This document shows, one piece after another, positions 2,196-42,300 of a stretch of 64,000 nt of DNA. Both the position numbers and the translations under genes were made by a program. The DNA lies in assembly GCA_028687915.1 (NCBI GenBank), contig JAQTZF010000001.1, positions 418,634 to 482,633 of the forward strand, read 5' to 3'. The first letter of the stretch is position 1; each line of letters opens with the position of its first letter. The notes beneath the pieces are model-generated. The model was not told the origin of the DNA. It searched no databases and was given only the letters and a program-made list of their open reading frames with translations. The DNA comes from Candidatus Daviesbacteria bacterium (GTDB lineage: Bacteria > Patescibacteriota > Microgenomatia > Daviesbacterales > UBA10151).

Positions 2196-3218
2196 ATGAT
2201 GACTAAAAAGATTTTAGTAACAGGAGCCGGGGGTTATATTGGATCCATCACCACAGATTTATTGTTACAAAGAGGATTTAACGTTGTTGCAGTTGATAAT
2301 TTTTCCAAAGGGTATAAATCTCCTTTAGTTTATCTTCAAAATAAATATGGTAAAAATAAGCTAATTTGGTATCAAAAAGATTTAATTAAAGATAATTTAG
2401 AAGATATTTTTAAGAAAGAGAAAATAGAGTTAATAATTCATTTTGCAGCTTTGTGTAATGTGGGAGAGTCTTGGGATAATCCAGAATTATATTTTGGTAA
2501 TAATGTTGTGGGATTACAAAAATTAGCAGAAGCTGCAATTAAGGCTAAAGTGGATAAAATAATTTTTTCCTCAACTTGTGCAGTTTATGGAGATGCCAAG
2601 TACTTACCAATAGATGAAGATCACCCTTTAGCTAACCCCTCCAGCCCATATGGAGCAACCAAAAAGATGTGTGAGGAAATACTTAATTGGTACTCTAAAA
2701 CCGGAGCAATGAAGTATGTATTTTTAAGATACTTTAATGTAACAGGAGCTACTGCTGATGGTTCTTTGGGTGACTCCAAGAATCCATCTTTTCATCTAAT
2801 ACAGAATGCTGTCAGAGGGGCTTTAGGATTAGCTCCTTTTGAATTAAACTATGCTTCAGTTAACACTCCTGATGGTTCACCTATTCGTGATTATGTTAAT
2901 GTGGTTGACTTAGCAGAAGCACATATTAAAGCTGCAGATTATTTATTAAAAGATGATAGTGAAAGTAATATATTTAATTTGGGAACAGGGGCTGGTAATT
3001 CAGTATTAGAAATTGTTAGTCTTGTTAAAGAAAAAACAGGTGTGGATTTTGAAGTTAATCCTGCCAAAGACAGAAGAAAAGGGGAGGCAGATAAAATGAT
3101 AGCAGACATTACAAAAATTGGAAAAGTTTTAGACTGGAAGCCAACACATACTTTAGAGCAAAGCATTGAGTCATTGATTAAGTGGTATAAAAAATATCCC
3201 AAGGGTTGGAATAATTAA
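2196..3218 (+). CDS. galE: UDP-glucose 4-epimerase (GalE-like NAD-dependent epimerase)
   Basis: VTGAGGYIGS Rossmann motif, the YxxxK catalytic motif (SPYGATKKM), and LRYFNVTGA and NLGTGAGNSVLE collinear with E. coli GalE. The ORF opens at GTG 2190. Start is uncertain; I chose the first ATG at 2196 but ATG 2199 is also possible. Confidence 0.82.
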   Translation: MMTKKILVTGAGGYIGSITTDLLLQRGFNVVAVDNFSKGYKSPLVYLQNKYGKNKLIWYQKDLIKDNLEDIFKKEKIELIIHFAALCNVGESWDNPELYFGNNVVGLQKLAEAAIKAKVDKIIFSSTCAVYGDAKYLPIDEDHPLANPSSPYGATKKMCEEILNWYSKTGAMKYVFLRYFNVTGATADGSLGDSKNPSFHLIQNAVRGALGLAPFELNYASVNTPDGSPIRDYVNVVDLAEAHIKAADYLLKDDSESNIFNLGTGAGNSVLEIVSLVKEKTGVDFEVNPAKDRRKGEADKMIADITKIGKVLDWKPTHTLEQSIESLIKWYKKYPKGWNN

Positions 3219-4717
3219 TTAGTAAAACCCCACAGTGGTAGTAGCTGCCTATCTTTATCAGTACAAATATTTTTATTAGAAATATTATTATGAGGTAAAA
3301 TAACCCCAAACATTCCAAATTTTACTGATACTTCTTTTTCTGAAATAGTCCAAGGGGTAACAATATCATATACAGGGACATCTCCTCCCGGAGTAACAAG
3401 GTTTAAACCATTATGCCAAAAAAGATATCTAAAACCATTCGGAAAGCCCTTATTTCCTTCAATATAATTAATGCCAATACAAGGATAATTATTTAATAAG
3501 GCATCATTTCTTATATATTCAATAGTTAATCTTTTTTGTAGATATCCACCTGGGTCATCTGGTCTATTAATAAGCCATGAAGTTACGATCAATAGATATA
3601 TACCACAAATGACTAAAGCAAGTGGAAGCTTTTTAAAGATACTGTTAATTTTGAATAGGAAAATAGATAAAACTAAAATGAAAATGATAAATAAATTATT
3701 TAAATAATATTCAGAGATAGACCGTTTAGAAAGAAATTGGCTTAGTAATGTAATACCCATCCAGGAAATTAAAATGATTGTTTGATTGCGAGTAAGCACC
3801 TTAATATAACCTGAGTATAAAATATAAATTAGTAAAATAATTGGCAAAAGAACAGTAACATTAAGAGAAAGATTTAAGGCGTTATTGTTTAAAACAAACA
3901 TACCGGATAAAGATTTCCCTGTAGCATCAAATGTTTTAATTAATCGTTCAAATCCTTTTACGTCTCCCCTATCTTCTTGAGTTGCATTAAGTAAGCCTTT
4001 AACTTGTTGAAAATTATGTCTTACTTCAAAAGTGACTAATGGTAAAAGTAAAGAAAATAGAATAAGGCCAGAAATAATTATGTCTTTTAAACTTACTTTA
4101 ATTTCTCTATTTTCTTTAGGGGAAAGCAAAAAACTTAGTGGTAAAAGTGCTAAGAGAGGTATAAAAGCAATGTGTACATGCCAAATAAGACCCAACAATA
4201 TTGAAAGTGGAATTAATGTTTTAATCTTTCCTTTTAATAGGGAAAATAATATATAAAGATACCAGGTAGTCCATAAAATTGTGGGTTGAGTAGGAACAAC
4301 CCAACGGTCTAAGAAAACAATTCCAGGTGAGACTGCATAAATAAATGCTCCAACTAAACCAATTGTTTTATTAAAGAATTTAGAAAAAACAAAATATATA
4401 CTAAAAATTGTTAACAGACTAAAAATTGTGGTAGGTATATTTGCACTCATAGGATCCATGTTAAATAGTGCAAAACAGATTGCTATTAGATAATAAAAAA
4501 TAGGGCCTATAAAGACACCGTTAACACTAGTTTCCTGGCCAATTAATCTGAAGTGGTGATCTGCAACAATATCTTTTGCAACCCAGGCAAAAAGGTCTTG
4601 GTCGTGACCAAATGGATAAAAAATCTCTAGTTTATAAATTCTAAAAAATAACCCCAATAAAAGAATGAATATAAGTAATGCTGTGGAGAGAGAGAAATGG
4701 TCTTTTAATATCTTCAT
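3215..4717 (-). CDS. Polytopic membrane protein, GT-C-like (ArnT/PMT-superfamily-like) glycosyltransferase, paralog family A
   Basis: 500 aa with ~12 predicted TM helices. The first loop has GHDQDLFAW...HHF.LIG....G.F.GP.FYY, which is shared with the ORFs at 4730, 24880, 26390 and 46554 (D-[EQ]-x-R-D-A type motif). Confidence 0.6.
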   Translation of the reverse strand: MKILKDHFSLSTALLIFILLLGLFFRIYKLEIFYPFGHDQDLFAWVAKDIVADHHFRLIGQETSVNGVFIGPIFYYLIAICFALFNMDPMSANIPTTIFSLLTIFSIYFVFSKFFNKTIGLVGAFIYAVSPGIVFLDRWVVPTQPTILWTTWYLYILFSLLKGKIKTLIPLSILLGLIWHVHIAFIPLLALLPLSFLLSPKENREIKVSLKDIIISGLILFSLLLPLVTFEVRHNFQQVKGLLNATQEDRGDVKGFERLIKTFDATGKSLSGMFVLNNNALNLSLNVTVLLPIILLIYILYSGYIKVLTRNQTIILISWMGITLLSQFLSKRSISEYYLNNLFIIFILVLSIFLFKINSIFKKLPLALVICGIYLLIVTSWLINRPDDPGGYLQKRLTIEYIRNDALLNNYPCIGINYIEGNKGFPNGFRYLFWHNGLNLVTPGGDVPVYDIVTPWTISEKEVSVKFGMFGVILPHNNISNKNICTDKDRQLLPLWGFTN

Positions 4718-4729
4718 TTACATATAATT

Positions 4730-6265
4730 CTATCTGAAAGTTAAAGGATCTAAAAGGTCTGGATTAGTAGGTACCTTTATTTCTTCTGTATTTAAATAAT
4801 ATTTTTCAACCTGAATAAAATCCCAACGGAATGTTTGATTCGGGTTACGGTCAATTTTAATATCACTAATCCTCCATGCAAAACTATTAAGTTCTGGCCT
4901 GTCTTTAGCCGGAGCTACTTCAATTAGATAAGTAAGAGACTTTTTGGTAGAGGGAAAAGAATGTATTTGTGGATAAAGTTTTTGAGCATAAATCATAGCA
5001 TATCTTTGTTGATAGCCTAATCGATCAGGGGAATAATTGTAAAATCCAAAATCCTGGGAAGCATCCTGATAAATATTTTTAGCAACTTCTAAGTTGAAAG
5101 CCCAGCTATGAGGTCCTCTTTTATTTATGTTTAAGTCAAATGAACGAATAGCCGCTATTCCTGTATAAAAATTAATTATGTAAAGAACTAAAAATCCGGT
5201 AAAAAATATCTTTTTATTCATGTACTTAGAAAATGAACAAAATATAATGATGGTTAGCGGGATAAAGGGCCAAAAGTAGTTACCAATTTCACCGCTATAC
5301 CCTAAAGATATAATCCAAAAACTACTTAAAAGATAAAAAAATATTTGATATACTCCCCTTTCAAATGCTTGGCTTTTTCTAAAAGAGATAATCGAACCAA
5401 CTATAAATAAAATTGTAAATATTCCTGTAAAAATATTTTTACCTGGGGATAACATATCAAAGAAATTAAAAACAAATGCATTTAGACGGCTTAAAAGTAG
5501 GTCAATAATATTTAGCTTGTCTTGGTGAACAGTAATATATTGTATAACTGCATTAAGTTGTAACCAGTTATGTTTTAAATCAAAAAGTATAAAAGTAGAA
5601 AGAGGAATTATTAAAATTAAATAAGAAACAAAATGCCAAATCTTTTTTCTAATAAATAAGTAATACATTAAATAAAAAGTAGTACTTAAAAGAATTGGAA
5701 TTCCAAAAGCCATTTGGAATTGTATTATTAGACCTAAAGTAAATAAGGATAATAATAAATATTTTATTTTTAGATTTCTTATATAACTAATAAACCAAAA
5801 GAAAAAGAGGGGAGTTAAAAAAACTGCTCCATAGGGATTATAGAAATTTTTTAAACCATATGTAGGGTTCATAATTGAATTTACAGATAAAAGTAATATG
5901 GATAGTAGTGCTACTTTTGTATTGAATATCTTTTTAGAAACCCAAAAAACTAAGATAGTAAAAATAATGGATAATAAAAACCAAAACCAACCAACTGCTA
6001 CGGGGTTACCATTGCTAATAAAAAAGATTGGTGCGTTTATATAAAACCACAAAGGTCCATGAAAAACTCCTTGTATAGCACCAGAACGAGGACCGAGCAG
6101 TGTAAAATGATGGTTCTGAACAATGTCATTAATTACTAAAAAATCACGGGAGACATCCACATCATAATGAATATCTCCATTAATTAACCAATAGCTACTC
6201 AGTAAAATATTGATAGCAATTAATAGAAAGGCTAATTTTGTAAAATTTAGAGGAAATTTTTTCAC
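4730..6265 (-). CDS. Polytopic membrane protein, GT-C-like glycosyltransferase, paralog family A
   Basis: 511 aa, multi-TM. DVDVSRDFLVINDIVQNHHFTLLGPRSG..GVFHGPLWFY is paralogous to the 3215..4717 product. Confidence 0.6.
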   Translation of the reverse strand: MKKFPLNFTKLAFLLIAINILLSSYWLINGDIHYDVDVSRDFLVINDIVQNHHFTLLGPRSGAIQGVFHGPLWFYINAPIFFISNGNPVAVGWFWFLLSIIFTILVFWVSKKIFNTKVALLSILLLSVNSIMNPTYGLKNFYNPYGAVFLTPLFFFWFISYIRNLKIKYLLLSLFTLGLIIQFQMAFGIPILLSTTFYLMYYLFIRKKIWHFVSYLILIIPLSTFILFDLKHNWLQLNAVIQYITVHQDKLNIIDLLLSRLNAFVFNFFDMLSPGKNIFTGIFTILFIVGSIISFRKSQAFERGVYQIFFYLLSSFWIISLGYSGEIGNYFWPFIPLTIIIFCSFSKYMNKKIFFTGFLVLYIINFYTGIAAIRSFDLNINKRGPHSWAFNLEVAKNIYQDASQDFGFYNYSPDRLGYQQRYAMIYAQKLYPQIHSFPSTKKSLTYLIEVAPAKDRPELNSFAWRISDIKIDRNPNQTFRWDFIQVEKYYLNTEEIKVPTNPDLLDPLTFR

Positions 6266-16376: not shown

Positions 16377-17294
16377 ATGATGTTTAATAAAATTTCACAT
16401 TATTTCATTCCACATCCTCAAACACATCAAAAAGCAAAACTTTTATCCTGGCAGTTTTTAGTTATTTATATATTATTTTTTATTTTAATTAGAGTTGGTT
16501 TAGATATAGTTGCTATTTATAAGCCAGGAACTTTAGGTGTTAGTGCAGAGTTAAGTGTTGAAAAAATAATTGAAGACACCAACAGAGAAAGACAAAAAAA
16601 TGGGCTTGCACCTGTTACTTATAACAGTGCATTATCAGAAGCAGCTAAAATGAAGGCTCAAAATATGTTTGCTGAAAATTATTGGGCTCATTTTGCACCA
16701 AGTGGTAAAGATCCCTGGGGCTTTATGAGAGATGCTGGTTATAGATTTTCTTATGCAGGAGAAAATTTGGCAAGAAACTTTTCTAATTCAGAAGATGTAG
16801 TAAGCGCCTGGATGGCTTCTCCAACTCATCGTGAGAATCTTTTAAATTCAAAATATCAGGATATTGGTATAGCTATTGAAGATGGAATATTACAAGGTCA
16901 AAAAACTACCCTGGTAGTACAAATGTTTGGACATCCATACCAAGCAATAGCAGCCCAGCCTCAGGCACTCCCTCAACCTAAATCAGAAGTTCAGGTTATT
17001 GCAGATGTACAAATAGAGCCAACTATTGTTCCGCAAGTTCCAAGCAGTAAAGAGATTGCGGTTGCCGGAACTCAAAAAGAACCAGTTTCAAATGCTGTTT
17101 TTGATCCTGCTACAATAATGAGAGTTGCTGGATTCAGTTTGCTTGTGTTTATTTCCATATTACTCTTAATAGATTTCCTGGTACTGCGAAGAAGAGGAGT
17201 GTTTCGCTTATCTTCTGCACATGTTGCTCATCTTAGCTTTTTGGCTTTGACTGGAGCATCAACAATATTTGCTAAGGTAGGAGAAATATTATGA
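16377..17294 (+). CDS. CAP/SCP (PR-1-like, YkwD-type) domain protein with N- and C-terminal TM segments
   Basis: The CAP core motifs are present: ...AENYWAHFAPSGKDPW...YAGENLARNF...WMASPTHRENLLNSKYQDIGIAI. Confidence 0.7.
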   Translation: MMFNKISHYFIPHPQTHQKAKLLSWQFLVIYILFFILIRVGLDIVAIYKPGTLGVSAELSVEKIIEDTNRERQKNGLAPVTYNSALSEAAKMKAQNMFAENYWAHFAPSGKDPWGFMRDAGYRFSYAGENLARNFSNSEDVVSAWMASPTHRENLLNSKYQDIGIAIEDGILQGQKTTLVVQMFGHPYQAIAAQPQALPQPKSEVQVIADVQIEPTIVPQVPSSKEIAVAGTQKEPVSNAVFDPATIMRVAGFSLLVFISILLLIDFLVLRRRGVFRLSSAHVAHLSFLALTGASTIFAKVGEIL

Positions 17295-20006: not shown

Positions 20007-20066
20007 ACCAACTTCTCTTAGAATTTTTTGGTCGAGTATTTTTTTTCATAAACTAATTTAATAAAG

Positions 20067-20072
20067 TATAAT
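20067..20072 (+). promoter_or_regulatory. TATAAT -10 hexamer 6 nt upstream of ATG 20079 (leaderless-type start for the P-loop NTPase gene)
   Basis: The sequence is aaagTATAATaaccgcATG. The same geometry recurs at other unit starts. Confidence 0.25.
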
Positions 20073-20078
20073 AACCGC

Positions 20079-21677
20079 ATGACTATTAAGAAATCTGATT
20101 ATGCTCAAATAATTGGAAATATAAACATAGGAAACTCTATTGCAGAAGACGATTTTTTATTAGAGTCTGCAAGAGTTGAAACGCCGGTGTTTAAAGGTGT
20201 TATTGAAGATAAGTATGATATAGTTTTGGGTAGAAAAGGTGCAGGAAAAACTGCAATATTTAAGTTAGTAAACCTTTTGTCAGAACATTTGTTGAGCAGA
20301 GACAATTTAGTAATATTAAGTGGAGTAAATAGTTCCGGTGAATCATTGTTTAATAAATTTAAAGAACAATTTAAAGATTATAGCGAAGAAGACTTTGAAA
20401 ATTTTTGGAAACTGTACTTTATTAATTTAATTTATAATCAATTTCTTAAAGAGCCTAAATTTGAGAAGAAACTGGAAACTTGCGAGAAGGAGATCAAAGA
20501 TTTTAAAAGTGCTTGCTATAAAGCAGGAATTCCCGATATTAAAAGCATACAAGGAATGCAAGCTATACTGGCTTGGTCTGTAAATGCGTTAAAGTCAGTT
20601 AAGTTAAAAGTTCCTATATCTTATGATGCAAAAAATCAAACATTATTTGCCCTTCCTGAATTAAAGATTGAAAAGGGTGTCAATAAGGAAGATGGTTTAT
20701 CAGAAACTAAATCTTTATATGTGCATGATATAGGTTTTGCTCTTGGGAAAATTCTTCATAAAAGTGGTTTTCATATATGGATTATATTGGATAGACTTGA
20801 TGAGGTTTTTGATAGATACTCTGCAGAGGAATTTAATGGTTTAAGAGGCTTATTAAGAGCTTATAAGAGTTTTGACATCGGAGTTGAAGGTAATTTTCGG
20901 ATAAAACTTTTTTTAAGAGATGACATCAAGTCTTTCTTAACAGATGCTAAGTCATATGAAAAACATTTCCCTAAAAAAGAATTACCTCCTTTGGTAGCAG
21001 CTACGCATATATTTTCAAAGGAATCACCAACACTAAGTTGGTCAGAAGATGAAATTGAGCAGTTAATATTAAATAGGTTATTGCTTGGACTAAATATTCA
21101 GCTAAGAGATTATTTGGGAATTAATGAAAAATATGTCGGTTTAAAAAAGAGTGAGATCGATAAAAAACTAGAAGAAGAATTAAGAAATAAACAATCCCGT
21201 AAAGAATATTGGAACAAGATATTTCCTTCTAAAATATCTTCAACCGATTCCTCTTTAAAGTGGATTTTTTCTCATCTTAAAGATTCAAATGATATAGTTA
21301 CTCCACGTTCAGTGATTGATATGTTAGAAGGAGCAATAAACTTCCAAAAACAAAAAATGCAAACAGATTTTCAGGATTCTTCTGTTGTATTTCCAATTGA
21401 GTCTATTAAAGCAGGTTTAGACATTGCTTCAGAACATAAACTTCTAAAGGATATATATAATGAATTCCCTAAAGAACAAGGATATATTAAACTTTTAAGT
21501 AAAGAAGGTCAGTTTAAGCTTTCTAAATCAGACCTCGAAAGACTTTTTGGAAAAGATTGGGAAAATATTGTTACCACCTTACGAAAGATAGGAATTCTTA
21601 GATATGTGAAAAATTCAGAGGAGTTTAGAATTGTTCACCTATTTCGCCCGGCCTTGGGAGTTAGTTATAGATATTAG
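20079..21677 (+). CDS. Orphan P-loop NTPase with STAND/KAP-like Walker B, hypothetical (possible defense or regulatory ATPase)
   Basis: 532 aa, soluble. Walker A is VLGRKGAGKTAIFKL at ~aa 50-60, and Walker B is hhhhD-x-LDE (IWIILDRLDEVF) at ~aa 236-245, resembling NACHT 'DGLDE' and KAP 'DDLDR'. The long helical C-terminal half has no glycosyltransferase motifs. It is flanked by 70-90 bp gaps. Confidence 0.6.
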   Translation: MTIKKSDYAQIIGNINIGNSIAEDDFLLESARVETPVFKGVIEDKYDIVLGRKGAGKTAIFKLVNLLSEHLLSRDNLVILSGVNSSGESLFNKFKEQFKDYSEEDFENFWKLYFINLIYNQFLKEPKFEKKLETCEKEIKDFKSACYKAGIPDIKSIQGMQAILAWSVNALKSVKLKVPISYDAKNQTLFALPELKIEKGVNKEDGLSETKSLYVHDIGFALGKILHKSGFHIWIILDRLDEVFDRYSAEEFNGLRGLLRAYKSFDIGVEGNFRIKLFLRDDIKSFLTDAKSYEKHFPKKELPPLVAATHIFSKESPTLSWSEDEIEQLILNRLLLGLNIQLRDYLGINEKYVGLKKSEIDKKLEEELRNKQSRKEYWNKIFPSKISSTDSSLKWIFSHLKDSNDIVTPRSVIDMLEGAINFQKQKMQTDFQDSSVVFPIESIKAGLDIASEHKLLKDIYNEFPKEQGYIKLLSKEGQFKLSKSDLERLFGKDWENIVTTLRKIGILRYVKNSEEFRIVHLFRPALGVSYRY

Positions 21678-21765
21678 ATAGTCGAAAGGTATGGTGTTAT
21701 GTATTGTCAAAAGTTATTCCTTCATCTACAATCGATCAAGGTCCTTAAAAATCCAGTAATAGAAA

Positions 21766-22947
21766 ATGAAAAAAGCGGTAATCCTACTTTATACCTATAA
21801 TGAAAAAGAAAATCTTGAAAAATTTGTTGGTGAGGTTTTAAATCAAGAAAAACACTCTGATGGATGGAATTTTGAAATATTAATAGCTGACAGCTCTTCT
21901 CCAGATGGCACATTTGAAATAGCAAAAAGACTTGCTAAAAATAATCCTAAAATTCATGCAATTACTGTAGGAAAGGGATTGGGGGTAGCAGTTATTGAAG
22001 GTCATCAATACTCTATAAAACATTTAAAGCCAGATGCTTTGGTTCAACTTGATGCTGATGGACAAGCTAAAGCTGATGTTGTCCCAAGACTTTTAAAAAC
22101 AATTGATGAAGGTTATAACCTTGCCCTTGGTTCAAGATTTGTTAAGGGTGGAAAAAATGATTTAACACTCTTGCGAAGAATTTTTACCTGGGGGTCTTGT
22201 ACCTTTTCCCGTTTAATAATGGGCCCTTTGGATATACAGGAATTTACAAATTCCGCCAGGGCATTTACCCCGGAATTATTTAATAAAATTAATTTAAAAA
22301 GACTTCCCTGGAGGGAACAATCTTATATTATTCAACCTGCTTTTTTAAATGAAGCAGTTTTGGCTGGTGCAAAATACAAAGAAGTTCCTCTTTATTTTAA
22401 AAATAGGGAAGAGGGGTATTCAAAAAATAAAGTCTTTAACTATACCTATGATGTAATTACTTATTCAATAGATGCTAGACTCCGAAAATGGGGTTTTAAT
22501 GGTAATTTTTTTAGAATGTCCAGAAGGGCAAAGACTTTTATTAAGTTTGGGATTGTAGGAGTTACCGGAACTATTGTTGATTTTGCCTTTTATAAAATAT
22601 TTATCAATGGATTTGATTTTAATCCTGCAACAGCCAAGGGGTTTTCTGCAGAAATTGCAGTAGTTAATAATTTTATCTGGAATAATTTTTGGACTTTTAA
22701 ATATAGAAAAACAAAAACCAATTTAGGGCAAAAATTCCTTATTTTTAATCTGGTCAGTGTAGGAGGAATTGTAATAGGTGTTTTGATTGTTAAATTATTG
22801 GATATGACCTTTGGAAGTGGATATGTTTATATTTTAGGAAGACATATTGCCTATAATAACTTTTATTTCTTTGCCACAATCCCACCTGTGATGATTTGGA
22901 ACTTTGTAGCAAATCACCTTATAACCTGGAAAAACAAAGAAGATTAA
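21766..22947 (+). CDS. GT2 glycosyltransferase (Dpm1-like polyprenyl-phosphate sugar synthase) fused to a C-terminal GtrA-like membrane domain
   Basis: The N-terminal ~230 aa have GT-A features (LLYTYNEKENL, ADSSSPDGT, DXD-like QLDADGQ). The C-terminal ~130 aa have 4 TM with FIKFGIVGVTGTIVDFAFYKIF...WNFVANH, typical of the GtrA family. Confidence 0.75.
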   Translation: MKKAVILLYTYNEKENLEKFVGEVLNQEKHSDGWNFEILIADSSSPDGTFEIAKRLAKNNPKIHAITVGKGLGVAVIEGHQYSIKHLKPDALVQLDADGQAKADVVPRLLKTIDEGYNLALGSRFVKGGKNDLTLLRRIFTWGSCTFSRLIMGPLDIQEFTNSARAFTPELFNKINLKRLPWREQSYIIQPAFLNEAVLAGAKYKEVPLYFKNREEGYSKNKVFNYTYDVITYSIDARLRKWGFNGNFFRMSRRAKTFIKFGIVGVTGTIVDFAFYKIFINGFDFNPATAKGFSAEIAVVNNFIWNNFWTFKYRKTKTNLGQKFLIFNLVSVGGIVIGVLIVKLLDMTFGSGYVYILGRHIAYNNFYFFATIPPVMIWNFVANHLITWKNKED

Positions 22948-24879: not shown

Positions 24880-26406
24880 ATGAAGTCTCTGATTACGTGG
24901 ATAAAACAAAACAAGCTTGAATGCTTAATTTTGACGACTATTTTAGGAGTGGCTGCTTTTTTAAGGTTTTACCGTCTCCCTGATTACATGACTTTTTTGG
25001 GTGATGAAGGCAGGGATGCTTTAATTGTTAAAGATATTCTGGTAAATCATATTATTCCTTCAATTGGTCCCCCATCATCTGTTGGAAATATTTATTTGGG
25101 TCCTTTGTATTACTACATGATGGCTGTTCCAATGGGGATTTTTTGGCTCAATCCTGTGGCTGCAACAGCAATGGTAGCTTTAATTGGGGTAATGGCTGTT
25201 GCTCTAATCTATTATTTAGCAAGAGTGTGGTTTGGTGTTTGTGCAGCAATACTTGCTGCAAGTCTTTATGCTTTATCCTTTGTCACAATCACCTATTCCA
25301 GGTCATCCTGGAATCCTAATCCTGTCCCCTTTTTTACACTTCTTGCTATCTTGGGATTTTATAAAGCAAGGCAAAGTAAAAACTTTTTATGGTTAATACT
25401 AACAGGAATTAGCTTGGCTGCGGCTGTTCAAATGCACTATTTATCCCTTATTTTACTTCCTATTTTTGGTTTGCTCTGGGTTTTTGAACTAAAAGATCAG
25501 GTAATACGTCAAAAATATTCTCATTTTATATTTGGAACAATTTCTGCAATAACAGTATTTATTCTAATGCTAATGCCGCTTATACTATTTGATTTTCGTC
25601 ATAATTTTTTAAATTATCGGGGGATAGTTTCATTATTTACACAAAGTGATAGTAGTGTTGGTTTTAATATATTCACAAGTTTAGGAAAAATCTTGCCGAT
25701 ATTTAATGATAAGCTAATTGGAAGATATTTAGGTGCAGAAAATATTATAGTTACCCTCTTTATATCAATTTTAGTTATTGTGCCTTTGATTTATGGTTTA
25801 TATAAATCTTTTAGACAAAGTAAGGGAGATAACAGTTGGTCAGTATTTGCTTTGGGGATTTGGCTGATTGTTGGTTTATTTGGAATTTCTTTATTTAAAT
25901 TAGAAATATATGATCATTATTTGGGGTTTATTAGCCCGGTACCATTTTTATTATTAGGTGGTTTTGTGGGTATTTTTAAAAATAAAATAGGTTTAATTAT
26001 TACAATAATAATTATATTTATAGTAGGTTTTTTAAATCTACAAAAAACTACTATATTACAACCTGCGAACTATCAACTCGAACGTACTCAGCAAATATCT
26101 AAATATATTATTCAGGAAGTGGGTAATAAACAATTTAACTTTGCTTTACTTTCCGAGAATAACTATGATTCAGCTTATCAATATTTCCTGGATCTTTATG
26201 GAAATAAACCCCGGGTTGTTCCTGTTGATATAACAGACCAATTATATGTGGTTTGTGAGGATAAGGTTTGTAAGCCTGTGGGGAATGCAAAATATGAAAT
26301 AGCGGGTTTTGGTTGGACTTTGATTGAAAAAGAAGAAATAGTTTCAGGTGTTAAAGTTTTTAAGTTAGTTCATAATCCAGCCCAAAAAAATGAAAAAAGT
26401 CTTTAA
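24880..26406 (+). CDS. Polytopic membrane GT-C-like glycosyltransferase, paralog family A
   Basis: 508 aa. FLGDEGRDALIVKDIL...IGPPSSVGNIYLGPLYYY is the family A loop motif. The start codon is 2 nt after the upstream stop. Confidence 0.6.
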   Translation: MKSLITWIKQNKLECLILTTILGVAAFLRFYRLPDYMTFLGDEGRDALIVKDILVNHIIPSIGPPSSVGNIYLGPLYYYMMAVPMGIFWLNPVAATAMVALIGVMAVALIYYLARVWFGVCAAILAASLYALSFVTITYSRSSWNPNPVPFFTLLAILGFYKARQSKNFLWLILTGISLAAAVQMHYLSLILLPIFGLLWVFELKDQVIRQKYSHFIFGTISAITVFILMLMPLILFDFRHNFLNYRGIVSLFTQSDSSVGFNIFTSLGKILPIFNDKLIGRYLGAENIIVTLFISILVIVPLIYGLYKSFRQSKGDNSWSVFALGIWLIVGLFGISLFKLEIYDHYLGFISPVPFLLLGGFVGIFKNKIGLIITIIIIFIVGFLNLQKTTILQPANYQLERTQQISKYIIQEVGNKQFNFALLSENNYDSAYQYFLDLYGNKPRVVPVDITDQLYVVCEDKVCKPVGNAKYEIAGFGWTLIEKEEIVSGVKVFKLVHNPAQKNEKSL

Positions 26407-31563: not shown

Positions 31564-33252
31564 ATGAAAAAAATAGTAGATTTATATAAAAGTCCTTTAG
31601 CTATCTTTGTATTATTAATTGTATTCACTGTACCCAGCTTTTTTCCACTGCTTCGCCCAGGATTTTTTCCAATGCAGGATGATTTGCAAGCGTTTAGAAT
31701 CCAGCAAATGGATAAGTGCTTTGCTGATTTTCAAATTCCCTGCCGTTGGGTGCCTGATGCTGGCTATCAGTATGGTTACCCGCAGTTTATATATTATCCG
31801 CCGAGTGTATATTATTTAGGCGAATTCTTTCATTTAATAGGCTTTCAGATTATAGATGCAGTAAAAATATTATTTATTTTAGGATTTGTTTTAGCAGCCA
31901 TCACAATGTTTATTCTTCTTAGGAGCTTGTTTGGTATTTTTCCGGCGTTTGTTGGCAGTCTTTTATATACATATGCTCCGTATCGTGCGGTGGATGTATA
32001 TGTTAGGGGAGCTATGAGTGAATTTTGGTCATTTGTTTTTTTTCCACTAATTTTTTGGTCTCTTTATAAATTAATTAAATCAAACAAGAATAAATACCTT
32101 ATCTGGACAGCTATTTCGATTGGGTTGTTGCTTCTTACACACAATTTGATGTCTCTAATCTTTATTCCAATTTCTGCAATTTGGGGAATATTCTGGATTG
32201 TTTTAGAAAGAAATTGGAAAGTGCTTCCTAGAGTTATTTTTGCAGGGTTATTAGGATTGGTTTTGGCTGCGTTTTTTACTTTACCTGTGGTCTTTGAAAA
32301 ACAATACGCGCATACAGAATCAATGCTAGGGGGGTATTTTGATTATAGGCAGCATTTTGTGGATATTAATCAGCTGTTTTTATCTAATCATTGGGGTTAC
32401 GGTTCTTCCTGGCTGGGGCCAAATGATAACTTAGACCTCTCAACGGGGACTGTGCATGCAGCAGCAGGGCTTTTGGCATTATTTTGTGCAATATATTTTT
32501 ATAAAAAAAATAGAAGAATTGCTTTATTAACTATAGTTTTGTTTGTTGTAGACCTTTTTGTTCTTTTTATGACACATCAAAAATCCAGCTTTATTTGGGA
32601 TTTTTTACCACCACTTTGGTATCTACAATTTCCATGGAGATTATTGGCTAATAGTGTCTTTATTCTTTCAGTGCTTTCTGCCATAGCGATATATTTACTT
32701 AAAAACAAGGAGCTGAAAGTAATATTAGGTGTTCTTCTAATATCCTTAGTGATGGTTATGCACCTAAGTTTTTTTCAACCTTCCAGATGGCTTGAGATGT
32801 CCGATCAGGAAAAATTTTCGGGGAAAAGTTGGGAGAAACAATTAACTGTCAGTATTTTTGATTATCTACCAATCTATGCTAAGCTTCCACCTACTAGTAG
32901 AGCACCTGATTTCCCCGAAATTATGGATGGAAAAACAAACTTTTTAAGTTATAAAAAGGGAAGTGATTTTCAAATTGGAAAAGTAGTAGTAGAAAATAAA
33001 GCAAATTTAAGGCTGCCTTTATTTGATTTTCCTGGTATGGTGGTAACAGTAGATGGGAAAGTGGTTCCTCACTGGCATAATGATTGCAGAAATCAAGAAT
33101 TTTGCTTGGGTCTTATAAGTGTTGATGTCGACTCGGGCGAGCATATAATAGAAGCAAGGTTAAAAAATACTCCAATTAGGGCACTGGGAAATCTGTTAAC
33201 AATTGGTGGAATTATTATCCTGGGTTTATTGTTTTGGAAGAGTAGGGATTAA
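31564..33252 (+). CDS. Polytopic membrane protein, GT-C-like, paralog family C (1 of 3 in tandem)
   Basis: 562 aa. FPMQDDLQAFRIQQMDKCFADFQIPCRWVPDAGYQYGYPQFIYYPP...YAPYRAVDVYVRGAMSEFWSF is shared with the next two ORFs. Confidence 0.55.
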   Translation: MKKIVDLYKSPLAIFVLLIVFTVPSFFPLLRPGFFPMQDDLQAFRIQQMDKCFADFQIPCRWVPDAGYQYGYPQFIYYPPSVYYLGEFFHLIGFQIIDAVKILFILGFVLAAITMFILLRSLFGIFPAFVGSLLYTYAPYRAVDVYVRGAMSEFWSFVFFPLIFWSLYKLIKSNKNKYLIWTAISIGLLLLTHNLMSLIFIPISAIWGIFWIVLERNWKVLPRVIFAGLLGLVLAAFFTLPVVFEKQYAHTESMLGGYFDYRQHFVDINQLFLSNHWGYGSSWLGPNDNLDLSTGTVHAAAGLLALFCAIYFYKKNRRIALLTIVLFVVDLFVLFMTHQKSSFIWDFLPPLWYLQFPWRLLANSVFILSVLSAIAIYLLKNKELKVILGVLLISLVMVMHLSFFQPSRWLEMSDQEKFSGKSWEKQLTVSIFDYLPIYAKLPPTSRAPDFPEIMDGKTNFLSYKKGSDFQIGKVVVENKANLRLPLFDFPGMVVTVDGKVVPHWHNDCRNQEFCLGLISVDVDSGEHIIEARLKNTPIRALGNLLTIGGIIILGLLFWKSRD

Positions 33253-33258
33253 GAAGTT

Positions 33259-34926
33259 ATGAAGAAATTATTTTTGGATTACTGGGTATTTTTATTGTTA
33301 GCTGTTTTTGTGGCCATTATTTCATGGCCACTTTTTCAGCGTGGTTATTTTTCCCATCATGATGATTTACAGGTAATGCGTATTTATGAAATGAGGCGTT
33401 GTTTAACAGATCTTCAAATCCCCTGCCGTTGGGTGCCTGATATGGGTTACGGTAATGGATTTCCACTTTTTAATTACTATAGTGCCCTACCTTATTATAT
33501 AGGAGCACTATTTAGCTTTTTAGTAGGATATATTTGGGCAGCCAAAATTTTATTTTTTATTCCATTGGCTTTGGGTGGTATTTCTATATTTCTATTAGGT
33601 AAAGAATTGTTTGGTAAAATTGCTGGAATAGTTGTTGCAGGATTATTTTTATTGGCTCCTTATAGAGCATTAGAGTTATATGTACGGGGGGCAGTTGCAG
33701 AAAGCTTTGGTCTGGCAATTGTACCATTAGTTTTTTACTTTATTCTTAAATTAATTAGACAAGCGACTTTAAAGAACTTTTTAGGAGTTTCAATTTCTTT
33801 AGCAGCGTTTTTAATTAGTCATAATATTATGACATTGTTTTTTGTACCGATTATTTTTCTTTGGTCAGTATACTTTTTGTATTTAGAAAGACCAAAAAAG
33901 GCATGGCTTTTATTTATAAGTTTAGCATTGGGTTTTGGTTTGGCTTCCTTTTTTATCCTACCGGCATTTTTTGAAAAATTATTAGTCCAGTCAGAAGCTT
34001 TAAAAAGTATGGATCTTAATTATAGGGCGAATTATGTAAGTCTTAACCAAATCTTTTTGGATCGCCATTGGGGATATGGCACCATGATAAATGATAATAT
34101 ATCTTTTCAAATTGGTTGGCCTCACTGGTGGTTAGTTGCAATTACTATTCCATTATTGGGGGTAGGCTTGGTTTTTCGTAAATTAAAGTTCAGGCAGGTT
34201 AGATCAGCACTCTTTCTACTTGTTGTTTTTGTTGCTTCAGTATTCATGACACATAATAGATCTGCCTTTATATGGGAGAGGATCAGTATTTTAGAGTATG
34301 CTCAATTTCCCTGGAGATTTTTATCTTTGATAATTTTTTCTGCAAGCCTAATAGGTGGTTTCTTAATAGCTCTCTTAAAGAATAATAAACAAAGATATTT
34401 TTTAGCACTAGTAATTATTTGTACAACATTACTTCTAAACTGGAGTTATTTTATACCGGAAAAATTTTATCCCAATTTAACTGATCAGGAAAAGTTATCA
34501 GGACGCTTATGGGAAGATCAACAAAAAGCTGCAATTTTAGATTATTTACCCAAAACAGCTTATGAACCCAGAGAGAAGGCTCCTAGTAATCCCATGCTAA
34601 TTTCGGGAAATGCTGAAATTAGTGCATTTTCAAATTATTCAAATAGATGGTCTTTTGAAACAACTGTTAAAAAGCCTTCAACTATTGAGTTGCCTGTTTT
34701 TGACTTTCCTAACTGGCAAGTAAAAGTTAATGGAAAAAATTATCCACATTCAAATCAAAATTATTTAGGTAGGATCAGTATTAATTTGCCTGAAGGAATG
34801 TATAAGGTAGAGGGGTATTTTCATAATACTCCAATTAGAACATTGGCTAATATAGTATCCTTAGTATCCTTATGTCTATTAATTATAATGTCCATTTATG
34901 GTAAATCTAAAAAAATATTTATCTAA
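33259..34926 (+). CDS. Polytopic membrane protein, GT-C-like, paralog family C (2 of 3)
   Basis: 555 aa. FSHHDDLQVMRIYEMRRCLTDLQIPCRWVPDMGYGNGFPLFNYY...APYRALELYVRGAVAESFG is present. Confidence 0.55.
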   Translation: MKKLFLDYWVFLLLAVFVAIISWPLFQRGYFSHHDDLQVMRIYEMRRCLTDLQIPCRWVPDMGYGNGFPLFNYYSALPYYIGALFSFLVGYIWAAKILFFIPLALGGISIFLLGKELFGKIAGIVVAGLFLLAPYRALELYVRGAVAESFGLAIVPLVFYFILKLIRQATLKNFLGVSISLAAFLISHNIMTLFFVPIIFLWSVYFLYLERPKKAWLLFISLALGFGLASFFILPAFFEKLLVQSEALKSMDLNYRANYVSLNQIFLDRHWGYGTMINDNISFQIGWPHWWLVAITIPLLGVGLVFRKLKFRQVRSALFLLVVFVASVFMTHNRSAFIWERISILEYAQFPWRFLSLIIFSASLIGGFLIALLKNNKQRYFLALVIICTTLLLNWSYFIPEKFYPNLTDQEKLSGRLWEDQQKAAILDYLPKTAYEPREKAPSNPMLISGNAEISAFSNYSNRWSFETTVKKPSTIELPVFDFPNWQVKVNGKNYPHSNQNYLGRISINLPEGMYKVEGYFHNTPIRTLANIVSLVSLCLLIIMSIYGKSKKIFI

Positions 34927-36595
34927 TCATCTTTGGATTTTAATTGTACCTTTAAGCTTTTTTGCCATAAGGGCACTTTTAGTACCTGGTTTTTATGGTG
35001 CCTCAGATGATTTACATATTGCATGGTTATTTGAACTTGATCGTTTAGTAAAATTGGGTCAATTTCCACCCCGTTTTGTGCCTGATTTAAGTTATAGTTT
35101 TGGGTATCCTTTATTTAATTTTGTGTTTCCATTGCCTTTTTATCTTGCTGAGGTTTTTCATTTAATTGGTTTTAGCTTGGTGGATAGTATTAAAGCAGTA
35201 TTTTTATTGAGTGTGCCCTTATCCGGAGTGTTAATGTATCAATTCTTAAAAACGTTTACTTCAAAAAGTTTAAGTTTAGCTGGCGCTATTATGTACATGT
35301 ATAGCCCGTACAGATCAACAGATATTTATATTAGGGGAGCCATTGGAGAAATAGTTGCTTTTATCTTTTTGCCCCTTGCCGCATTGTCGATTACAAATCT
35401 TTTTGCAAGGAGTAATGACTCTAAACAATTTATAAATCTTCGTTGGATTGGAATTGGAGCTTTTGCTTTTGCTGGCTTAGTTCTAACACATAATATAGCA
35501 GCTTATATGTTTATGCCACTCCTTTTTATTTTAGCAGTAGCAAAATTAATATCCATTAAAAATTATTTACGCAATTTATTAAACTTATTTGCGGCTTTTT
35601 TTCTTGGATTGATGATCAGTCTATATTTTTGGTTACCTGCTATACAGGATAGCAGTTTAATGAAATATGATACTGTTTTTAATTTTGTTGACCATTTCCC
35701 AACCATAAAGCAATTAATAGTGCCTTATTGGGGATATGGGGCTTCTGTTGCTGGTCCAAATGATGGAATGTCATTCTTTCTGGGGATGCCGACCTTGTTT
35801 ATAATTGTAATCGGAATATTTTTGATAGGTCTAGCGTGGAAAAGATTTTCTGGAGACCAAAAAGTTGTTGTTGGCTGGGCAATAGCCTCATTATTAATAG
35901 CACTTATAATGATGAACTTTAGGTCAATATTAATTTGGCAGAAAGTACCATTAATTCCTTTCTTTCAATTTCCGTGGAGATTTTTGATTATTACTACCTT
36001 TGCAGCACCTATTCTGGTAATAGCTTTTGATAAATTAAGATATCGTAATTTTGTAGCTCTAGTTATTTTAATATTAGTTTTAATTACCAACTTTAGTTCC
36101 TTTCACCCACAAGATTATTTAGGAAGGGGAGATAGCTATTATTTGAATAAATATATTCCATTGTCTATTGCTAGTGAAGAATACTCAAAAACACAAGAAG
36201 AATATCTTAGGTTGCCGCTTGGTACTGTACAAAGGCCGGATAAAATATATCCGAGGGTTTTTCCGCAAACAGGTCAAATTATACAAGTTAAGGAGCTGGA
36301 TAGCTTAACTGCATTAATCGACACTAATTCAAACGAAAAGTTTACACTAAATTATAATAAATATTATTTTCCTGGTTGGTATGCAACAATTGATAACCAG
36401 GATGCTGATATTTCTGCAGGGGCTCCTTTTGGACAAATTCAAGTTGCAGTTCCTTCGGGAAGTCATGTAATAAAGATTGGCTTTGCTGAAACCAAACAAA
36501 AAATATTCTTAGATATAATTTCTGTTGTGGGTATCATTATTGCTGTTTTGTGTTGTATTAATCCAGATATGATCAAAAAGTGGAAGACAACATAG
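34898..36595 (+). CDS. Polytopic membrane protein, GT-C-like, paralog family C (3 of 3)
   Basis: 565 aa. ASDDLHIAWLFELDRLVKLGQFPPRFVPDLSYSFGYPLFNFVFP...SPYRSTDIYIRGAIGEIVAF is present. There is a 29-nt overlap with the upstream paralog. Confidence 0.55.
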   Translation: MVNLKKYLSNHLWILIVPLSFFAIRALLVPGFYGASDDLHIAWLFELDRLVKLGQFPPRFVPDLSYSFGYPLFNFVFPLPFYLAEVFHLIGFSLVDSIKAVFLLSVPLSGVLMYQFLKTFTSKSLSLAGAIMYMYSPYRSTDIYIRGAIGEIVAFIFLPLAALSITNLFARSNDSKQFINLRWIGIGAFAFAGLVLTHNIAAYMFMPLLFILAVAKLISIKNYLRNLLNLFAAFFLGLMISLYFWLPAIQDSSLMKYDTVFNFVDHFPTIKQLIVPYWGYGASVAGPNDGMSFFLGMPTLFIIVIGIFLIGLAWKRFSGDQKVVVGWAIASLLIALIMMNFRSILIWQKVPLIPFFQFPWRFLIITTFAAPILVIAFDKLRYRNFVALVILILVLITNFSSFHPQDYLGRGDSYYLNKYIPLSIASEEYSKTQEEYLRLPLGTVQRPDKIYPRVFPQTGQIIQVKELDSLTALIDTNSNEKFTLNYNKYYFPGWYATIDNQDADISAGAPFGQIQVAVPSGSHVIKIGFAETKQKIFLDIISVVGIIIAVLCCINPDMIKKWKTT

Positions 36596-39382: not shown

Positions 39383-42300
39383 ATGTTTAAAAAGCTTGTT
39401 TTTTGTTTAATTGTAGCTATATTTTTTTTCAATACACCAAATATTTTTGCTGCTGAAAATTCTTATGTTACTGTAGTAAATCCCATCAGAGGAAGTGATT
39501 TTTGGGATCAAAAAGGGCAAGAAGTAGAAACTGCGGTTTTGGGACAAATTAAAATATTAGATGAATTCAAAATTCCCGCTACTTTTTTAATTCGTTTTGA
39601 TGCCTTTTCTTCGAATCAGCTTATAGATTCCTTAAAAAATATAACCCATGAAAAGGGTTTATTTCTTGAGGTCACACCTTCATGGGCCACTGCTGCAGGG
39701 GTGAAATACAGACAATCTCCTGTTTGGCATAATGCAGAGAGTGTTTTTTTAACTGGGTATGATATTGAGGAGCGAAAAAGGTTTATAGATAAAGCATTTG
39801 AAGAATTTAAAAAAGCTTTTGGCTCATACCCTAAATCAGTAGGGGCATGGTGGATTGACAGTTATTCTTTAGAATACATGCAAAATAAGTACAATATTGA
39901 TGCTGTATTGATTGTTGCAGATCAATATTCTACTGATAATTATCAGATTTGGGGGCAGTACTTTGGGACTCCATATTATCCAGCTAAGAAAAATGCTTTA
40001 GCTCCTGCCCAAAACACAAAAAATAAAATACCAGTTGTTGTAATGCAGTGGGCAACCAGAGACCCTATTAATGGTTACGGAGAAGGGGTTATGGAAACAA
40101 CCTACAGTTTACAAGCCAATGATTATATTGATTATCATCAACTTGGTTCCAATTATTTTACTAAACTCATTGATCTTTTTACCACCCAACCATATAACCA
40201 GGTTAACCATGTAGTGGTAGGTTTAGAAAATTCCTATAATTGGAAGACGTATCAATCAGAATATAGAAAACAAATAGAGTTACTAAAGAATCGAGCAGTT
40301 CAACGGCAGCTTTCTTTGGTAACAATGGAAGAATTTGCTAAATGGTACAAGTTAAAGTTTCCGGATGTTTCTCCGGCACAAATTATCATAGCAAATGACC
40401 CTTTGGGAACTTCTAAAAAGGTTGTCTGGTTTATGAACCAGTATTATCGAGCAGGGTGGTTTTACAACCGGGATGGAAGTGTTTTTAGAGACATCAGACA
40501 ATATGTGGAAGGACAAGTTGAGCCTTGTTATGAAGTTGCTTGTAAGCAGATTAATTTTGCTACTTTTTCTACACGGGTACTGGATGATGTTACTTATAAG
40601 GAAAAATTAATTTTAGATAAAGGTAAAATAGCAGATTTTATAGTTAAAGAAGATAAGGAGTTTGTTATTAATTATACCAATGAAGCGGGAAGAAGAAGAC
40701 AGATTTCTTTTTTGCCGCGAGATATTTCTATTGATGGTAAGGTCAGTTCTATAGACAGTTTAATTTTACAAGCAAAAGAGTCAATAAGAGATGATAAAAA
40801 AATACAAGTTGAATTTTCACCAGATACTACTAAAAATTTCCAGGAACCACTCTCTGTTTTAGCTTTTAATATTATTAAATTTCTTATATTTATAATTATG
40901 GTTTTATTCATTCCGGGTTTTTCAGTAGTAAGATCACTAAAACAAGAGTCCTTAATTTTAAATATATTTTTATCAATTTGTATAGGTTTTGTTGGTTTAG
41001 TCTTAGTTTCTTTTGTTGCCGGTTATTTAAAATTACCTTGGTTGGTTTTTGTTTATATAGGGAGTGTTTTGATAACCTTTTTCTTTAAAAAGAGATATTT
41101 AGGGTTATCTTTAAAACAAGTATCTTTTTCCAAAAATAATATTTTAATTTTAATTGTTCTAATTTTAGGTACGATTTTTCAGTCGCTTATTATGGTACGT
41201 TCAGGATGGGTGTATGATTTTGGAGTGGGTTTTTGGGGGCCAACAGGTCATGATATGGTTTGGCACCAAGCGTTGGTTAATCAATTAGTCAAGGCGGTTC
41301 CGCCTGAAAGTCCGATTTTGGCTGGAGAGACTTTAAACGGTTATCACTATTTTTTTGATTTGTTAGTAGCAGAAAGTTATAAGTTAACTAATATTTCTAT
41401 ATTAGATTTATTGTATCGATTTTTCCCAGTACTTTTTTCCTTATTATTAGGTATTGGAACTATTGGTTTACTAAATAAATTGACAACTAATAAAATAATT
41501 TCCTTAACCTCATTATACTTTGTTTATTTTGCTGGAAGCTTTGGTTGGATAGTAACTTATTTAAGAGATAAAAGTATTAGCGGAGAATCAGTCTTTTGGG
41601 TGAATCAGCCAGTTTCCATGAATATTAATCCCCCATTCGCCATTTCATTGCTGCTTGTAATTACTATAGTTTTATTGATAAATATACATAGACTTAATAA
41701 ATCCACCTATAGCTATTTTTTATTAGTAATATTAATTGGTGTATTAGTGGAGTTTAAAGTTTATGCTGGTGTGGTGGCGATGGGCGGACTATTAATAATG
41801 GCTTTGTTAGAGGTGATAACAAAAAGAAGCTTTACCTACTTAAAAATCTTTTTACCTGCAGCTATTTTTTCTGCTGTATTATTTATTCCACAAAACAAGA
41901 ATGCAGCAAGTCTGTTGGTGTTTTCTCCATTATGGTTTATTGATTCAATGATGGATTTTGCGGATAGAGTAGGGTGGAGTAAATTATCTGCTGCTCGGTT
42001 AGCGTATTTTGCTCGTGGCGAATGGTTAAAGTATATATCAATAGAAGCTTTATCACTGTTTATCTTTATTGCAGGAAACTTGGGGATAAGAATATTATTG
42101 TTGTTTAAGATGCAAAGCTTGTTTAAAAGAAACTGGTGGCATATTTCTGAATATACATTTATGTTTTTTATGGGGTTAGTTTCTTTGACTATCCCATTGT
42201 TTTTCATTCAAAAAGGTAACCCCTGGAATACTATCCAATTTATCTATTATTTAGTTTACTTCGCAGCAATAGGTGCAAGCTTTGGTTTGTTTGTTATTTA

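Follow-up and report, generated by a model that had tools for sequence, protein, structure and literature searches.

A Sll1717-family P-loop ATPase as probable mobile cargo in a Daviesbacteria sugar locus, with a tentative role in genetic conflict

The 64,000-nucleotide stretch of DNA analysed here (the window; Candidatus Daviesbacteria bacterium, assembly GCA_028687915.1, contig JAQTZF010000001.1, positions 418,634 to 482,633 of the forward strand) carries, inside a sugar locus, a gene for a P-loop ATPase of 532 amino acids (aa), which is referred to below as the ATPase. It is best explained overall as a stand-alone, soluble switch protein of the Sll1717 family that is borne as mobile cargo and serves in genetic conflicts, a composite reading to which a probability of about 0.4 was assigned. 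The parts of this reading differ in strength: membership in the Sll1717 family and an architecture with a body plan like that of ORC/Cdc6 and STAND ATPases are held with high confidence, and the gene is probably horizontally mobile cargo in a variable slot of a conserved gmd–GT2 sugar locus, whereas use of the protein as a switch in conflicts with phages or mobile elements, i.e. a defence or conflict role, is put forward tentatively. This last part was deduced from genomic context only, and the switch mechanism is suggested by the modelled fold.

Family assignment, motifs and predicted fold

In NCBIfam, the ATPase was matched by NF047389 ('P-loop ATPase, Sll1717 family') with 135.1 bits against a curated cutoff of 75 (E = 3.8e-39), residues 17–517 being aligned to profile positions 1–426 of 454. 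In PHROGs, phrog_14159 (unknown function) was matched over the full length (93.6 bits, E = 2.6e-26; residues 14–528 on profile positions 4–482 of 488), and prophage relatives reach 413 bits against the same profile. Both entries describe one already named family, the function of which is not established; besides the full-length profile match, the ATPase shares with it a similar length and the same Walker A and DRLDE Walker B motifs, with no structural difference. The initial annotation, made from the letters alone, had called the protein an unannotated orphan, which is superseded by these entries and by 92 homologues in a word-indexed search and 4159 cluster representatives (50% identity) at E ≤ 1e-3, or 615 at E ≤ 1e-30, in an exhaustive profile search.

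A hypothetical protein in a Candidatus Daviesbacteria metagenome-assembled genome (Patescibacteria) has the same sequence as the ATPase (100% identity). Full-length homologues show 50–67% identity in other Patescibacteria and 22–37% across many other phyla, the lengths of family members being ~490–535 aa. Judged by these identities, the copy in the window appears to sit in a Patescibacteria-centred subclade that is 22–35% identical to the members from other phyla and from prophages. A pattern scan with narrow patterns and one genome per species returned relatives in at least 322 of 185,579 species genomes, with a patchy spread over phyla; Planctomycetota, Acidobacteriota, Bacteroidota, Nitrospirota, Verrucomicrobiota (Akkermansia), Bacillota (Lysinibacillus) and Cyanobacteria were represented. 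No paralogue was found within the window. The family gene is broken up or shortened in several genomes (L030, L042, L057; partial matches in L068, L069, L072), with C-terminal fragments called as separate open reading frames (ORFs) and matches ending at residue 325–409 on long contigs, which suggests that copies often decay.

The gene and its features were located as follows, invariance being scored in an alignment of 37 homologues with identities down to 24%:

20079–21677, + strand: complete gene of the Sll1717-family P-loop (AAA+-like) ATPase, 532 aa; ORF with ATG start, matches to NF047389 and phrog_14159
20130–20162, + strand: conserved N-terminal box GNSIAEDDFLL, residues 18–28; G18, A22, E23, D25 and L28 invariant
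20229–20255, + strand: Walker A (P-loop) GRKGAGKTA, residues 51–59; G51, K53, G54, G56 and K57 invariant
20325–20765, + strand: helical insertion, residues ~83–229, from strand 2 to Walker B; AlphaFold2 secondary structure and confidence
20775–20807, + strand: Walker B IWIILDRLDEV of the D-x-h-D-E type, residues 233–243; W234, D238, R239, L240, D241 and E242 invariant
20895–20924, + strand: strand 4 with putative sensor-1 arginine, RIKLFLRDD; R280 and D282 invariant, strand 273–280 in the model
21039–21518, + strand: helical lid or helical-bundle domain, residues 321–480; W321, R333, W395, D402, P409-R410 and E462 invariant; present in the full-length model and in that of the C-terminal half alone, the latter with a predicted local distance difference test score (pLDDT) of 95
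21519–21674, + strand: C-terminal winged-helix-like module with a net charge of +4; helix 483–504, hairpin 507–518 and helix 520–526 in the models

The residues of both Walker motifs, and also H310, are invariant in this alignment; such invariance lies far above chance, and as far as the alignment can tell the motifs are real and under selection. The ORF, the two motifs and the spacing of ~180 aa between them had been described correctly (181 residues from K57 to D238), as had the helical C-terminal half without transmembrane (TM) segments, which was borne out by the models and by hydropathy, the maximum 19-residue Kyte–Doolittle mean being 1.07 and no TM-like segment being present. The N-terminal box, ~29 residues before the P-loop, may be the equivalent of the 'GRExE' pre-P-loop helix of ORC/Cdc6/AAA_16; R280 may act as sensor 1, and the helical insertion may occupy the topological site of the initiator-specific motif.

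An AlphaFold2 model of the ATPase, built with the 37-sequence alignment, reached a pLDDT of 88 and a predicted TM-score (pTM) of 0.86 and was poor only at loop 177–208. It runs from the N-terminal box through strand 1 and the P-loop, strand 2, the helical insertion of ~145 residues and strand 3 with Walker B to strand 4 ending at R280, the large helical region 321–480 and a helix-hairpin-helix module at 483–526. In a Foldseek search against PDB, the best match was archaeal ORC2/Cdc6 of Aeropyrum pernix (1w5t, E = 3e-4, probability 1.0), and the further top matches included yeast ORC1, Apaf-1, S. solfataricus Cdc6/Orc1, BrxC of BREX (9zdx, E = 3e-3) and RdrA of RADAR (8hr8, E = 7e-3). TM-scores were 0.3–0.4 with ORC/Cdc6 proteins, at 10–13% identity, and ~0.2–0.3 with Apaf-1 and NLRs. 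Sequence and profile searches of PDB with the ATPase gave trivial P-loop matches only, and the BFVD viral fold search with the model gave nothing significant. No Pfam family, KAP_NTPase included, matched the ATPase at E ≤ 10. Distant relatives gave sub-threshold Pfam matches to ORC-CDC6-like, AAA_16, nSTAND1 and NACHT: those to ORC-CDC6-like (PF24389; no match to the ATPase itself) reached 19–31 bits, mostly below the 27-bit cutoff, over the N-terminal box and P-loop, and those to NACHT reached 16–22 bits against a cutoff of 26.7 and were confined to the Walker B segment.

On the model, the ATPase would represent a separate, distant family in the ORC/Cdc6–STAND branch of the AAA+-like ATPases, with the body plan of that branch, predicted to be without an enzymatic effector or a repeat sensor. 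In the model it shares with the ORC/Cdc6 initiators the order of AAA+ core, lid and C-terminal winged helix, but its helical lid region is much larger and a ~145-residue helical insertion precedes Walker B, and its family lacks a conserved origin or replication-gene neighbourhood. With STAND proteins (Apaf-1, NACHT/NLR, Avs/bNACHT, nSTAND1) it has in common the D-x-h-D-E Walker B, the arginine ending strand 4 and, in the model, helical and winged-helix modules after the core; the ATPase itself, however, has no STAND profile match, N-terminal effector or C-terminal repeats and ends after the winged helix, whereas some relatives bear C-terminal HEAT repeats as STAND sensors do. BrxC and RdrA, likewise ORC/STAND-like ATPases that themselves have no enzymatic domain, and among the top fold matches, act in conserved multi-gene systems, while the ATPase has neither a conserved neighbour nor a PADLOC match to either.

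Several relatives carry additional domains. R3H was found C-terminally in four distant relatives, one of which also has OST-HTH/LOTUS, HEAT repeats were found C-terminally in one relative and IF2_N N-terminally in another; the R3H, OST-HTH and HEAT additions occupy the position of STAND sensors. Among 18 extended or distant relatives scanned with Pfam, no fusion to an enzymatic effector was detected.

The gmd–GT2 slot

As initially described, the ATPase gene lies between a gmd gene and a GT2 gene. The upstream neighbour encodes a Gmd-type dehydratase (PF16363, E = 1.9e-104; N-terminus MKKALITGITGQDGSFL) and the downstream neighbour a GT2 + GtrA protein. Three metagenome loci (L137, L138, L139), found via close relatives of the downstream GT2–GtrA, were compared by tblastn with the proteins of the window. 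All three share the syntenic locus (CAP, rmlC, rmlD, gmd, GT2–GtrA, PMT-like, GT2, PMT and more; 65–92% aa identity), the genes flanking the slot being 77–92% identical to those of the window, and the ATPase gene was absent from each of them in this comparison. The interval and its contents are as follows:

20007–21765, no strand: variable cargo slot from the gmd stop to the GT2–GtrA start with the ATPase gene inside, delimited by synteny with L137, L138 and L139
Window, 1759 nucleotides (nt) from gmd to GT2: ATPase gene alone
L138, 5 nt: empty
L139, ~870 nt: 180-aa PIN-like ORF and 66-aa ORF, both on the opposite strand (L139:5152-5812, – strand)
L137, ~3.9 kb: 958-aa LCAT/PGAP1-like hydrolase and two small membrane ORFs (L137:2088-5916)

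Because the relatives carry either nothing or other genes in this slot, the ATPase gene was classified as cargo and not as a part of the glycosylation machinery; the earlier statement that it is functionally unrelated to its sugar-locus neighbours was thus upheld by synteny. If the conflict role holds, the gmd–GT2 junction would amount to a minor hotspot for cargo, occupied by the ATPase gene, a PIN-like ORF, the gene of a secreted hydrolase or no gene at all.

The 180-aa ORF of L139 has a PIN-like N-terminus (ILLDTNILI; PF01850, E = 1.6e-3, below the cutoff). The 66-aa ORF overlaps it upstream, and the genes flanking this slot are ~90% identical to those of the window; from its sequences the pair looks like a toxin–antitoxin pair. 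In L137, the 958-aa α/β hydrolase has a signal peptide, and the two membrane ORFs comprise 194 and 97 aa.

GC content, GC content at third codon positions (GC3) and codon usage of the ATPase gene gave no signal of transfer, being the same as in neighbouring genes, from which it follows that the insertion is old or that the donor was compositionally similar. No convincing flanking repeats were found around the gene. An 18-nt inverted repeat, 83% complementary, brackets it at 20061–20078 and 21775–21792, its left arm ending at the start codon and its right arm lying 9 nt inside the GT2 ORF; it probably reflects chance in AT-rich DNA.

Upstream of the gene, one promoter-like element was recorded:

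20043–20072, + strand: hexamers TTTTCA-18-TATAAT, 10/12 match; no Shine-Dalgarno sequence

The TATAAT (20067–20072) does lie 6 nt before the ATG, as had been reported, but is not evidence on its own, since promoter-like matches occur in this AT-rich DNA at the rate of shuffled sequence (38 found in the region against 38.9 expected). A –10-like hexamer, sometimes of the extended TGn form, was also seen ~0–11 nt from the start, without a Shine-Dalgarno sequence, in the orthologues of L001, L008, L158, L160, L161 and L162. Such start-proximal boxes hint at leaderless or very short-leader transcripts, or could be chance in AT-rich DNA. Upstream of the orthologues, no common LexA-box-like (GAAC-N4-GTTC), Cheo-box-like or other operator motif was found.

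Contexts of homologues in genomes, prophages and plasmids

Conserved partners were sought by clustering the ORFs within five genes of a family gene in ~79 genome loci and within four genes in 26 non-redundant viral loci; neither set contained a conserved partner gene. The largest neighbour cluster comprised tyrosine recombinases/integrases, at variable positions, in 6 of the ~79 loci. An apparent '+1' partner cluster was rejected, as it consisted of C-terminal fragments of disrupted family copies. Among 142 immediate (±1) neighbours, the commonest Pfam families were Phage_integrase (4), GIY-YIG (3) and DDE transposases (2 plus 2); GDP_Man_Dehyd and Epimerase came from the window only, and PADLOC matches were limited to a few restriction–modification (R-M) methyltransferases and one restriction enzyme.

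Twelve loci with Patescibacteria orthologues of at least 50% identity, the window included, were treated as close contexts:

Window: variable slot in the sugar locus
P0002: between lexA and uvrB
P0003: beside a block of hypotheticals ending in HTH_17 and a large serine recombinase
P0007: GmrSD/Mrr-like gene, GIY-YIG and Fic nearby
P0008: DinB-family gene, BipA
P0009: adjacent tyrosine integrase, PLD-like gene, DpnII R-M pair
P0011: housekeeping genes
P0016: housekeeping genes
P0020: two GT2 genes upstream; S24 peptidase, NgoPII R-M and Vsr downstream
P0042: adjacent C5 methylase/HinP1I R-M
P0043: housekeeping genes
P0047: housekeeping genes

All twelve differ from one another. Restriction genes (R-M or GmrSD-like) occur within ~8 kb in 4/12 and recombinases in 2/12 (one adjacent tyrosine integrase, one nearby serine recombinase), whereas any glycosyltransferase is nearby in only two, the other ten being without glycosylation genes. 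The expectation by chance was set at ~3–5%, assuming a 16-kb span, a 1-Mb genome and 2–3 R-M systems; on that assumed background, used without a matched control, R-M genes are enriched near the close orthologues. In a low-sensitivity seed search over 80 genome loci, methyltransferases turned up in 5 loci, recombinases in 6 and a GmrSD-like gene in 1; of the 13 matched ORFs, 11 are situated within 5 kb of the family gene, though 43% of the bases in the flanks are farther away than that. As to the earlier question of whether homologues sit in defence islands, some loci have restriction or recombinase genes, while housekeeping neighbours predominate. A second ORF, of 524 aa, near orthologue P0043 was considered as a paralogue and rejected.

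Genes of the SOS or DNA-damage type recur beside family members (L160:624-4989; L161:12024-12656; L003:7486-7980; viral loci). At orthologue P0002, lexA is divergent from the family gene at a distance of 77 nt and uvrB follows directly downstream; S24 peptidases, SRAP, UmuC-type (IMS) genes and a DinB-family gene are the other neighbours of this type. A CAP domain gene lies in the window at 16377–17294, 3 kb upstream of the ATPase gene, and another (L158:7493-8851) directly upstream of the 59%-identical P0009, which may be coincidence.

In IMG/VR, 48 contigs encode relatives of 22–28% identity. Within three genes of these, phage integrases (6), Arm-DNA-binding domains (3), S24 repressors (3), Ogr/Delta (3) and SRAP (3) were counted, along with a CI-like repressor, P4-type primase domains (DUF927, Toprim) and Mu- or P2-type structural genes; the contigs are genuine prophages or satellites. 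In one of them, L100, the sequence that begins with the portal gene Q shares 86% identity with Stenotrophomonas phage Smp131 (P2-like, Peduoviridae), and the ATPase relative is encoded between an integrase-like ORF and Q, where Smp131 has DUF4238, SRAP, hypotheticals and a DNA methyltransferase, so this interval is an accessory-gene slot. Of the plasmid copies, one has an AbiEi-domain gene and an N6 methylase as neighbours, and hsdR stands next to another. On the Nostoc sp. UHCC 0870 plasmid NZ_CP091916.1 (L155:5750-8422), an 890-aa 'ParA family protein', encoded beside a type I hsdR, has the family module as its C-terminal part. The E. coli genomes searched gave no match to the family.

In PADLOC-DB v2, the single match of the ATPase at E ≤ 10 was PDC-M28C (39 bits, E = 9e-11), and it was partial, covering profile positions 165–378 of 480. 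Ten further family members also matched PDC-M28C partially (28–73 bits), from Walker B to the lid. Since all 11 tested members match the profile only partially, PDC-M28C is, by these comparisons, a probable sister family of the Sll1717 family. PDC-x entries of PADLOC are unpublished candidate systems (PMC11811056), so the PADLOC comparison proposed for the ATPase yielded kinship with an unvalidated candidate only. None of the papers searched mentions Sll1717 or PDC-M28.

Mechanism and rival explanations

If the ATPase is a switch, ATP binding and hydrolysis at the site formed by Walker A, DRLDE and R280 would alter the conformation or oligomerisation of the insertion, lid and winged helix, and the nucleotide would thereby gate oligomerisation or nucleic-acid binding via the insertion and the C-terminal helical and winged-helix part. 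The ligand would probably be nucleic acid, in view of the R3H and OST-HTH fusions of relatives and the basic winged-helix-like C-terminus. As no effector is fused to the ATPase, the output could be ATPase-driven or pass through a partner encoded elsewhere.

A conflict or defence role was proposed because of the variable slot, the integrase and R-M neighbours, the accessory location in a prophage, the kinship with a PADLOC candidate and the likeness in fold to BrxC, RdrA and Apaf-1. The earlier suggestion of a candidate defence ATPase thus keeps the R-M genes, integrases and prophage accessory slots near some homologues on its side, with the partial PADLOC match as its shortfall, and it is retained as a hypothesis. 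A number of observations weigh against it. The ATPase has no match to any validated PADLOC system (PADLOC-DB v2, E ≤ 10), and by Pfam and hydropathy it has neither an effector domain, nuclease, TIR, SIR2 or protease nor a TM segment; one or other of these is usual in the known single-gene defences of the STAND or KAP kind. The fold matches are distant (TM-scores 0.2–0.4, though with probabilities of at least 0.96), and when the C-terminal half was modelled by itself (pLDDT 95), no PDB entry matched it significantly (best E = 0.4); the weak matches were to lid plus winged-helix regions of Apaf-1, ORC2 and NLRs, to winged helices of the MarR/ArsR/IclR type and to archaeal ATPase_2 proteins in their C-terminal domain. 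Queries with the ATPase and a prophage relative showed the family to be absent from 50,697 isolated phage genomes, and on plasmids it is rare, with few distant relatives only. Apart from the families listed above, the ±1 neighbours are mostly single housekeeping families, and the enrichment in R-M genes was calculated on 12 loci against a background rate that was assumed, without a matched control. Finally, the only member known to have been studied, Synechocystis Sll1717, was reportedly linked by Kufryk and Vermaas in 2006 to the plastoquinone redox state and quinol oxidase activity, and not to phage defence.

A bolder form of the conflict reading, in which the Sll1717/phrog_14159 family would be a new, widespread, single-gene, effector-less system against phages and mobile elements, acting by nucleotide-gated oligomerisation on foreign nucleic acid and not by means of a fused toxin, with this copy among the few defence genes active in the ultra-small genomes of the candidate phyla radiation (CPR), is considered rather unlikely. 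The strongest competitor, itself unlikely, is a host physiological regulator, i.e. a nucleotide-dependent housekeeping, stress or DNA-damage switch unrelated to phages. It would account for the predominance of housekeeping genes among the neighbours, for a composition and codon usage indistinguishable from host genes, for the full-length conservation at 50–67% identity within Patescibacteria and for the recurrent SOS-type neighbours (lexA, uvrB, S24, SRAP, UmuC-type, DinB-family), and Sll1717 itself is reported to affect respiratory and photosynthetic electron flow. Such a regulator is difficult to reconcile with the sporadic distribution (at least 322 of 185,579 species genomes, narrow patterns), the want of a conserved context or partner, the absence of the gene from syntenic close relatives, the disrupted copies in several genomes and the lack of a LexA-box-like motif common to the upstream regions. 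A factor for the maintenance or replication of mobile elements, such as an ORC/Cdc6-like initiator or loader or a partition-type ATPase, of which the CPR copies would be remnants or domesticated forms, is less probable still. The best fold matches are indeed ORC/Cdc6 initiators, which also have a C-terminal winged helix, and relatives occur near integrases, P4-type primases (DUF927/Toprim) and prophage repressors and on plasmids, one being fused to a ParA-family protein, with recombinases adjacent in some loci; yet the window and most close orthologue loci are without other mobile-element genes, the ATPase gene is alone in its slot, the copy in the P2-like prophage occupies an accessory slot and not the replication module, and isolated phage genomes lack the family.

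Two further alternatives are very improbable. A role as regulator or accessory ATPase for the glycosylation machinery encoded around it, which the initial annotation had offered as its own alternative, could be argued from the shared strand, the gaps of 72 and 88 nt within the gmd–GT2–PMT cluster without predicted terminators and the two GT2 genes upstream of orthologue P0020, but it is largely refuted by syntenic relatives that lack the gene between flanks of 77–92% identity, one with gmd and GT2 only 5 nt apart and others with different cargo, by the 10/12 close contexts without glycosylation genes (a glycosyltransferase being nearby in 2/12 only) and by the window being the only source of GDP_Man_Dehyd and Epimerase among the 142 neighbours. 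True membership in the KAP or NACHT families, or a part as component C in a multi-gene system of the PDC-M28 type, is about equally improbable. The D-x-h-D-E Walker B and the wide interval from Walker A to Walker B resemble these families: the IILDRLDE of the ATPase fits the NACHT (PF05729) pattern hhhhD-[GA]-h-D-E, with R replacing G/A and with D238, D241 and E242 invariant, and KAP proteins (PF07693; PifA-type) likewise have a long insertion between the Walker motifs and an extra acidic residue after Walker B. The partial PDC-M28C match and the sub-threshold NACHT and nSTAND1 matches of distant relatives point the same way. Many KAP NTPases, however, have TM helices inserted in the P-loop domain, whereas the insertion of the ATPase has none and is modelled as soluble helices; no KAP proteins were among the fold matches, Pfam gave nothing at E ≤ 10, the PDC-M28C match is confined to less than half of the profile and does not exceed 73 bits in any relative, and no conserved neighbours that could serve as A or B components stand beside family members. 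The earlier description as STAND/KAP-like therefore holds for the NACHT/STAND-type Walker B and for the fold matches to Apaf-1, BrxC and RdrA, but neither for KAP nor for a NACHT profile.

Should the conflict role be true, a compact effector-less ATPase system would be added to the defence catalogue, and immunity genes to the Patescibacteria, where few are recognised. Without such a role, the gene would still have to be annotated as 'P-loop ATPase, Sll1717 family', and not as a glycosylation, KAP or NACHT protein.

In the 64-kb window as a whole, no tRNA genes and no Rfam families (gathering threshold) were found. The region 22944–62675, and also 3215–6265, is occupied by a near-unbroken run of polytopic membrane proteins with 8–14 predicted TM segments, at least 22 such ORFs being present in the window. 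Eleven of the polytopic ORFs form one paralogue family, including the PMT/PMT_2-positive ORF at 24880–26406, and there are also a paralogue triplet (31564–36595), a pair (39383–44844), three GT2 genes and four soluble paralogues (49489, 52923, 53771, 55650). Such a GT-C/PMT-like glycosyltransferase array is unusually large for a CPR genome of ~1 Mb. A second NAD-dependent sugar dehydratase/epimerase, a paralogue of the gmd-like gene, is encoded at 2190–3218.

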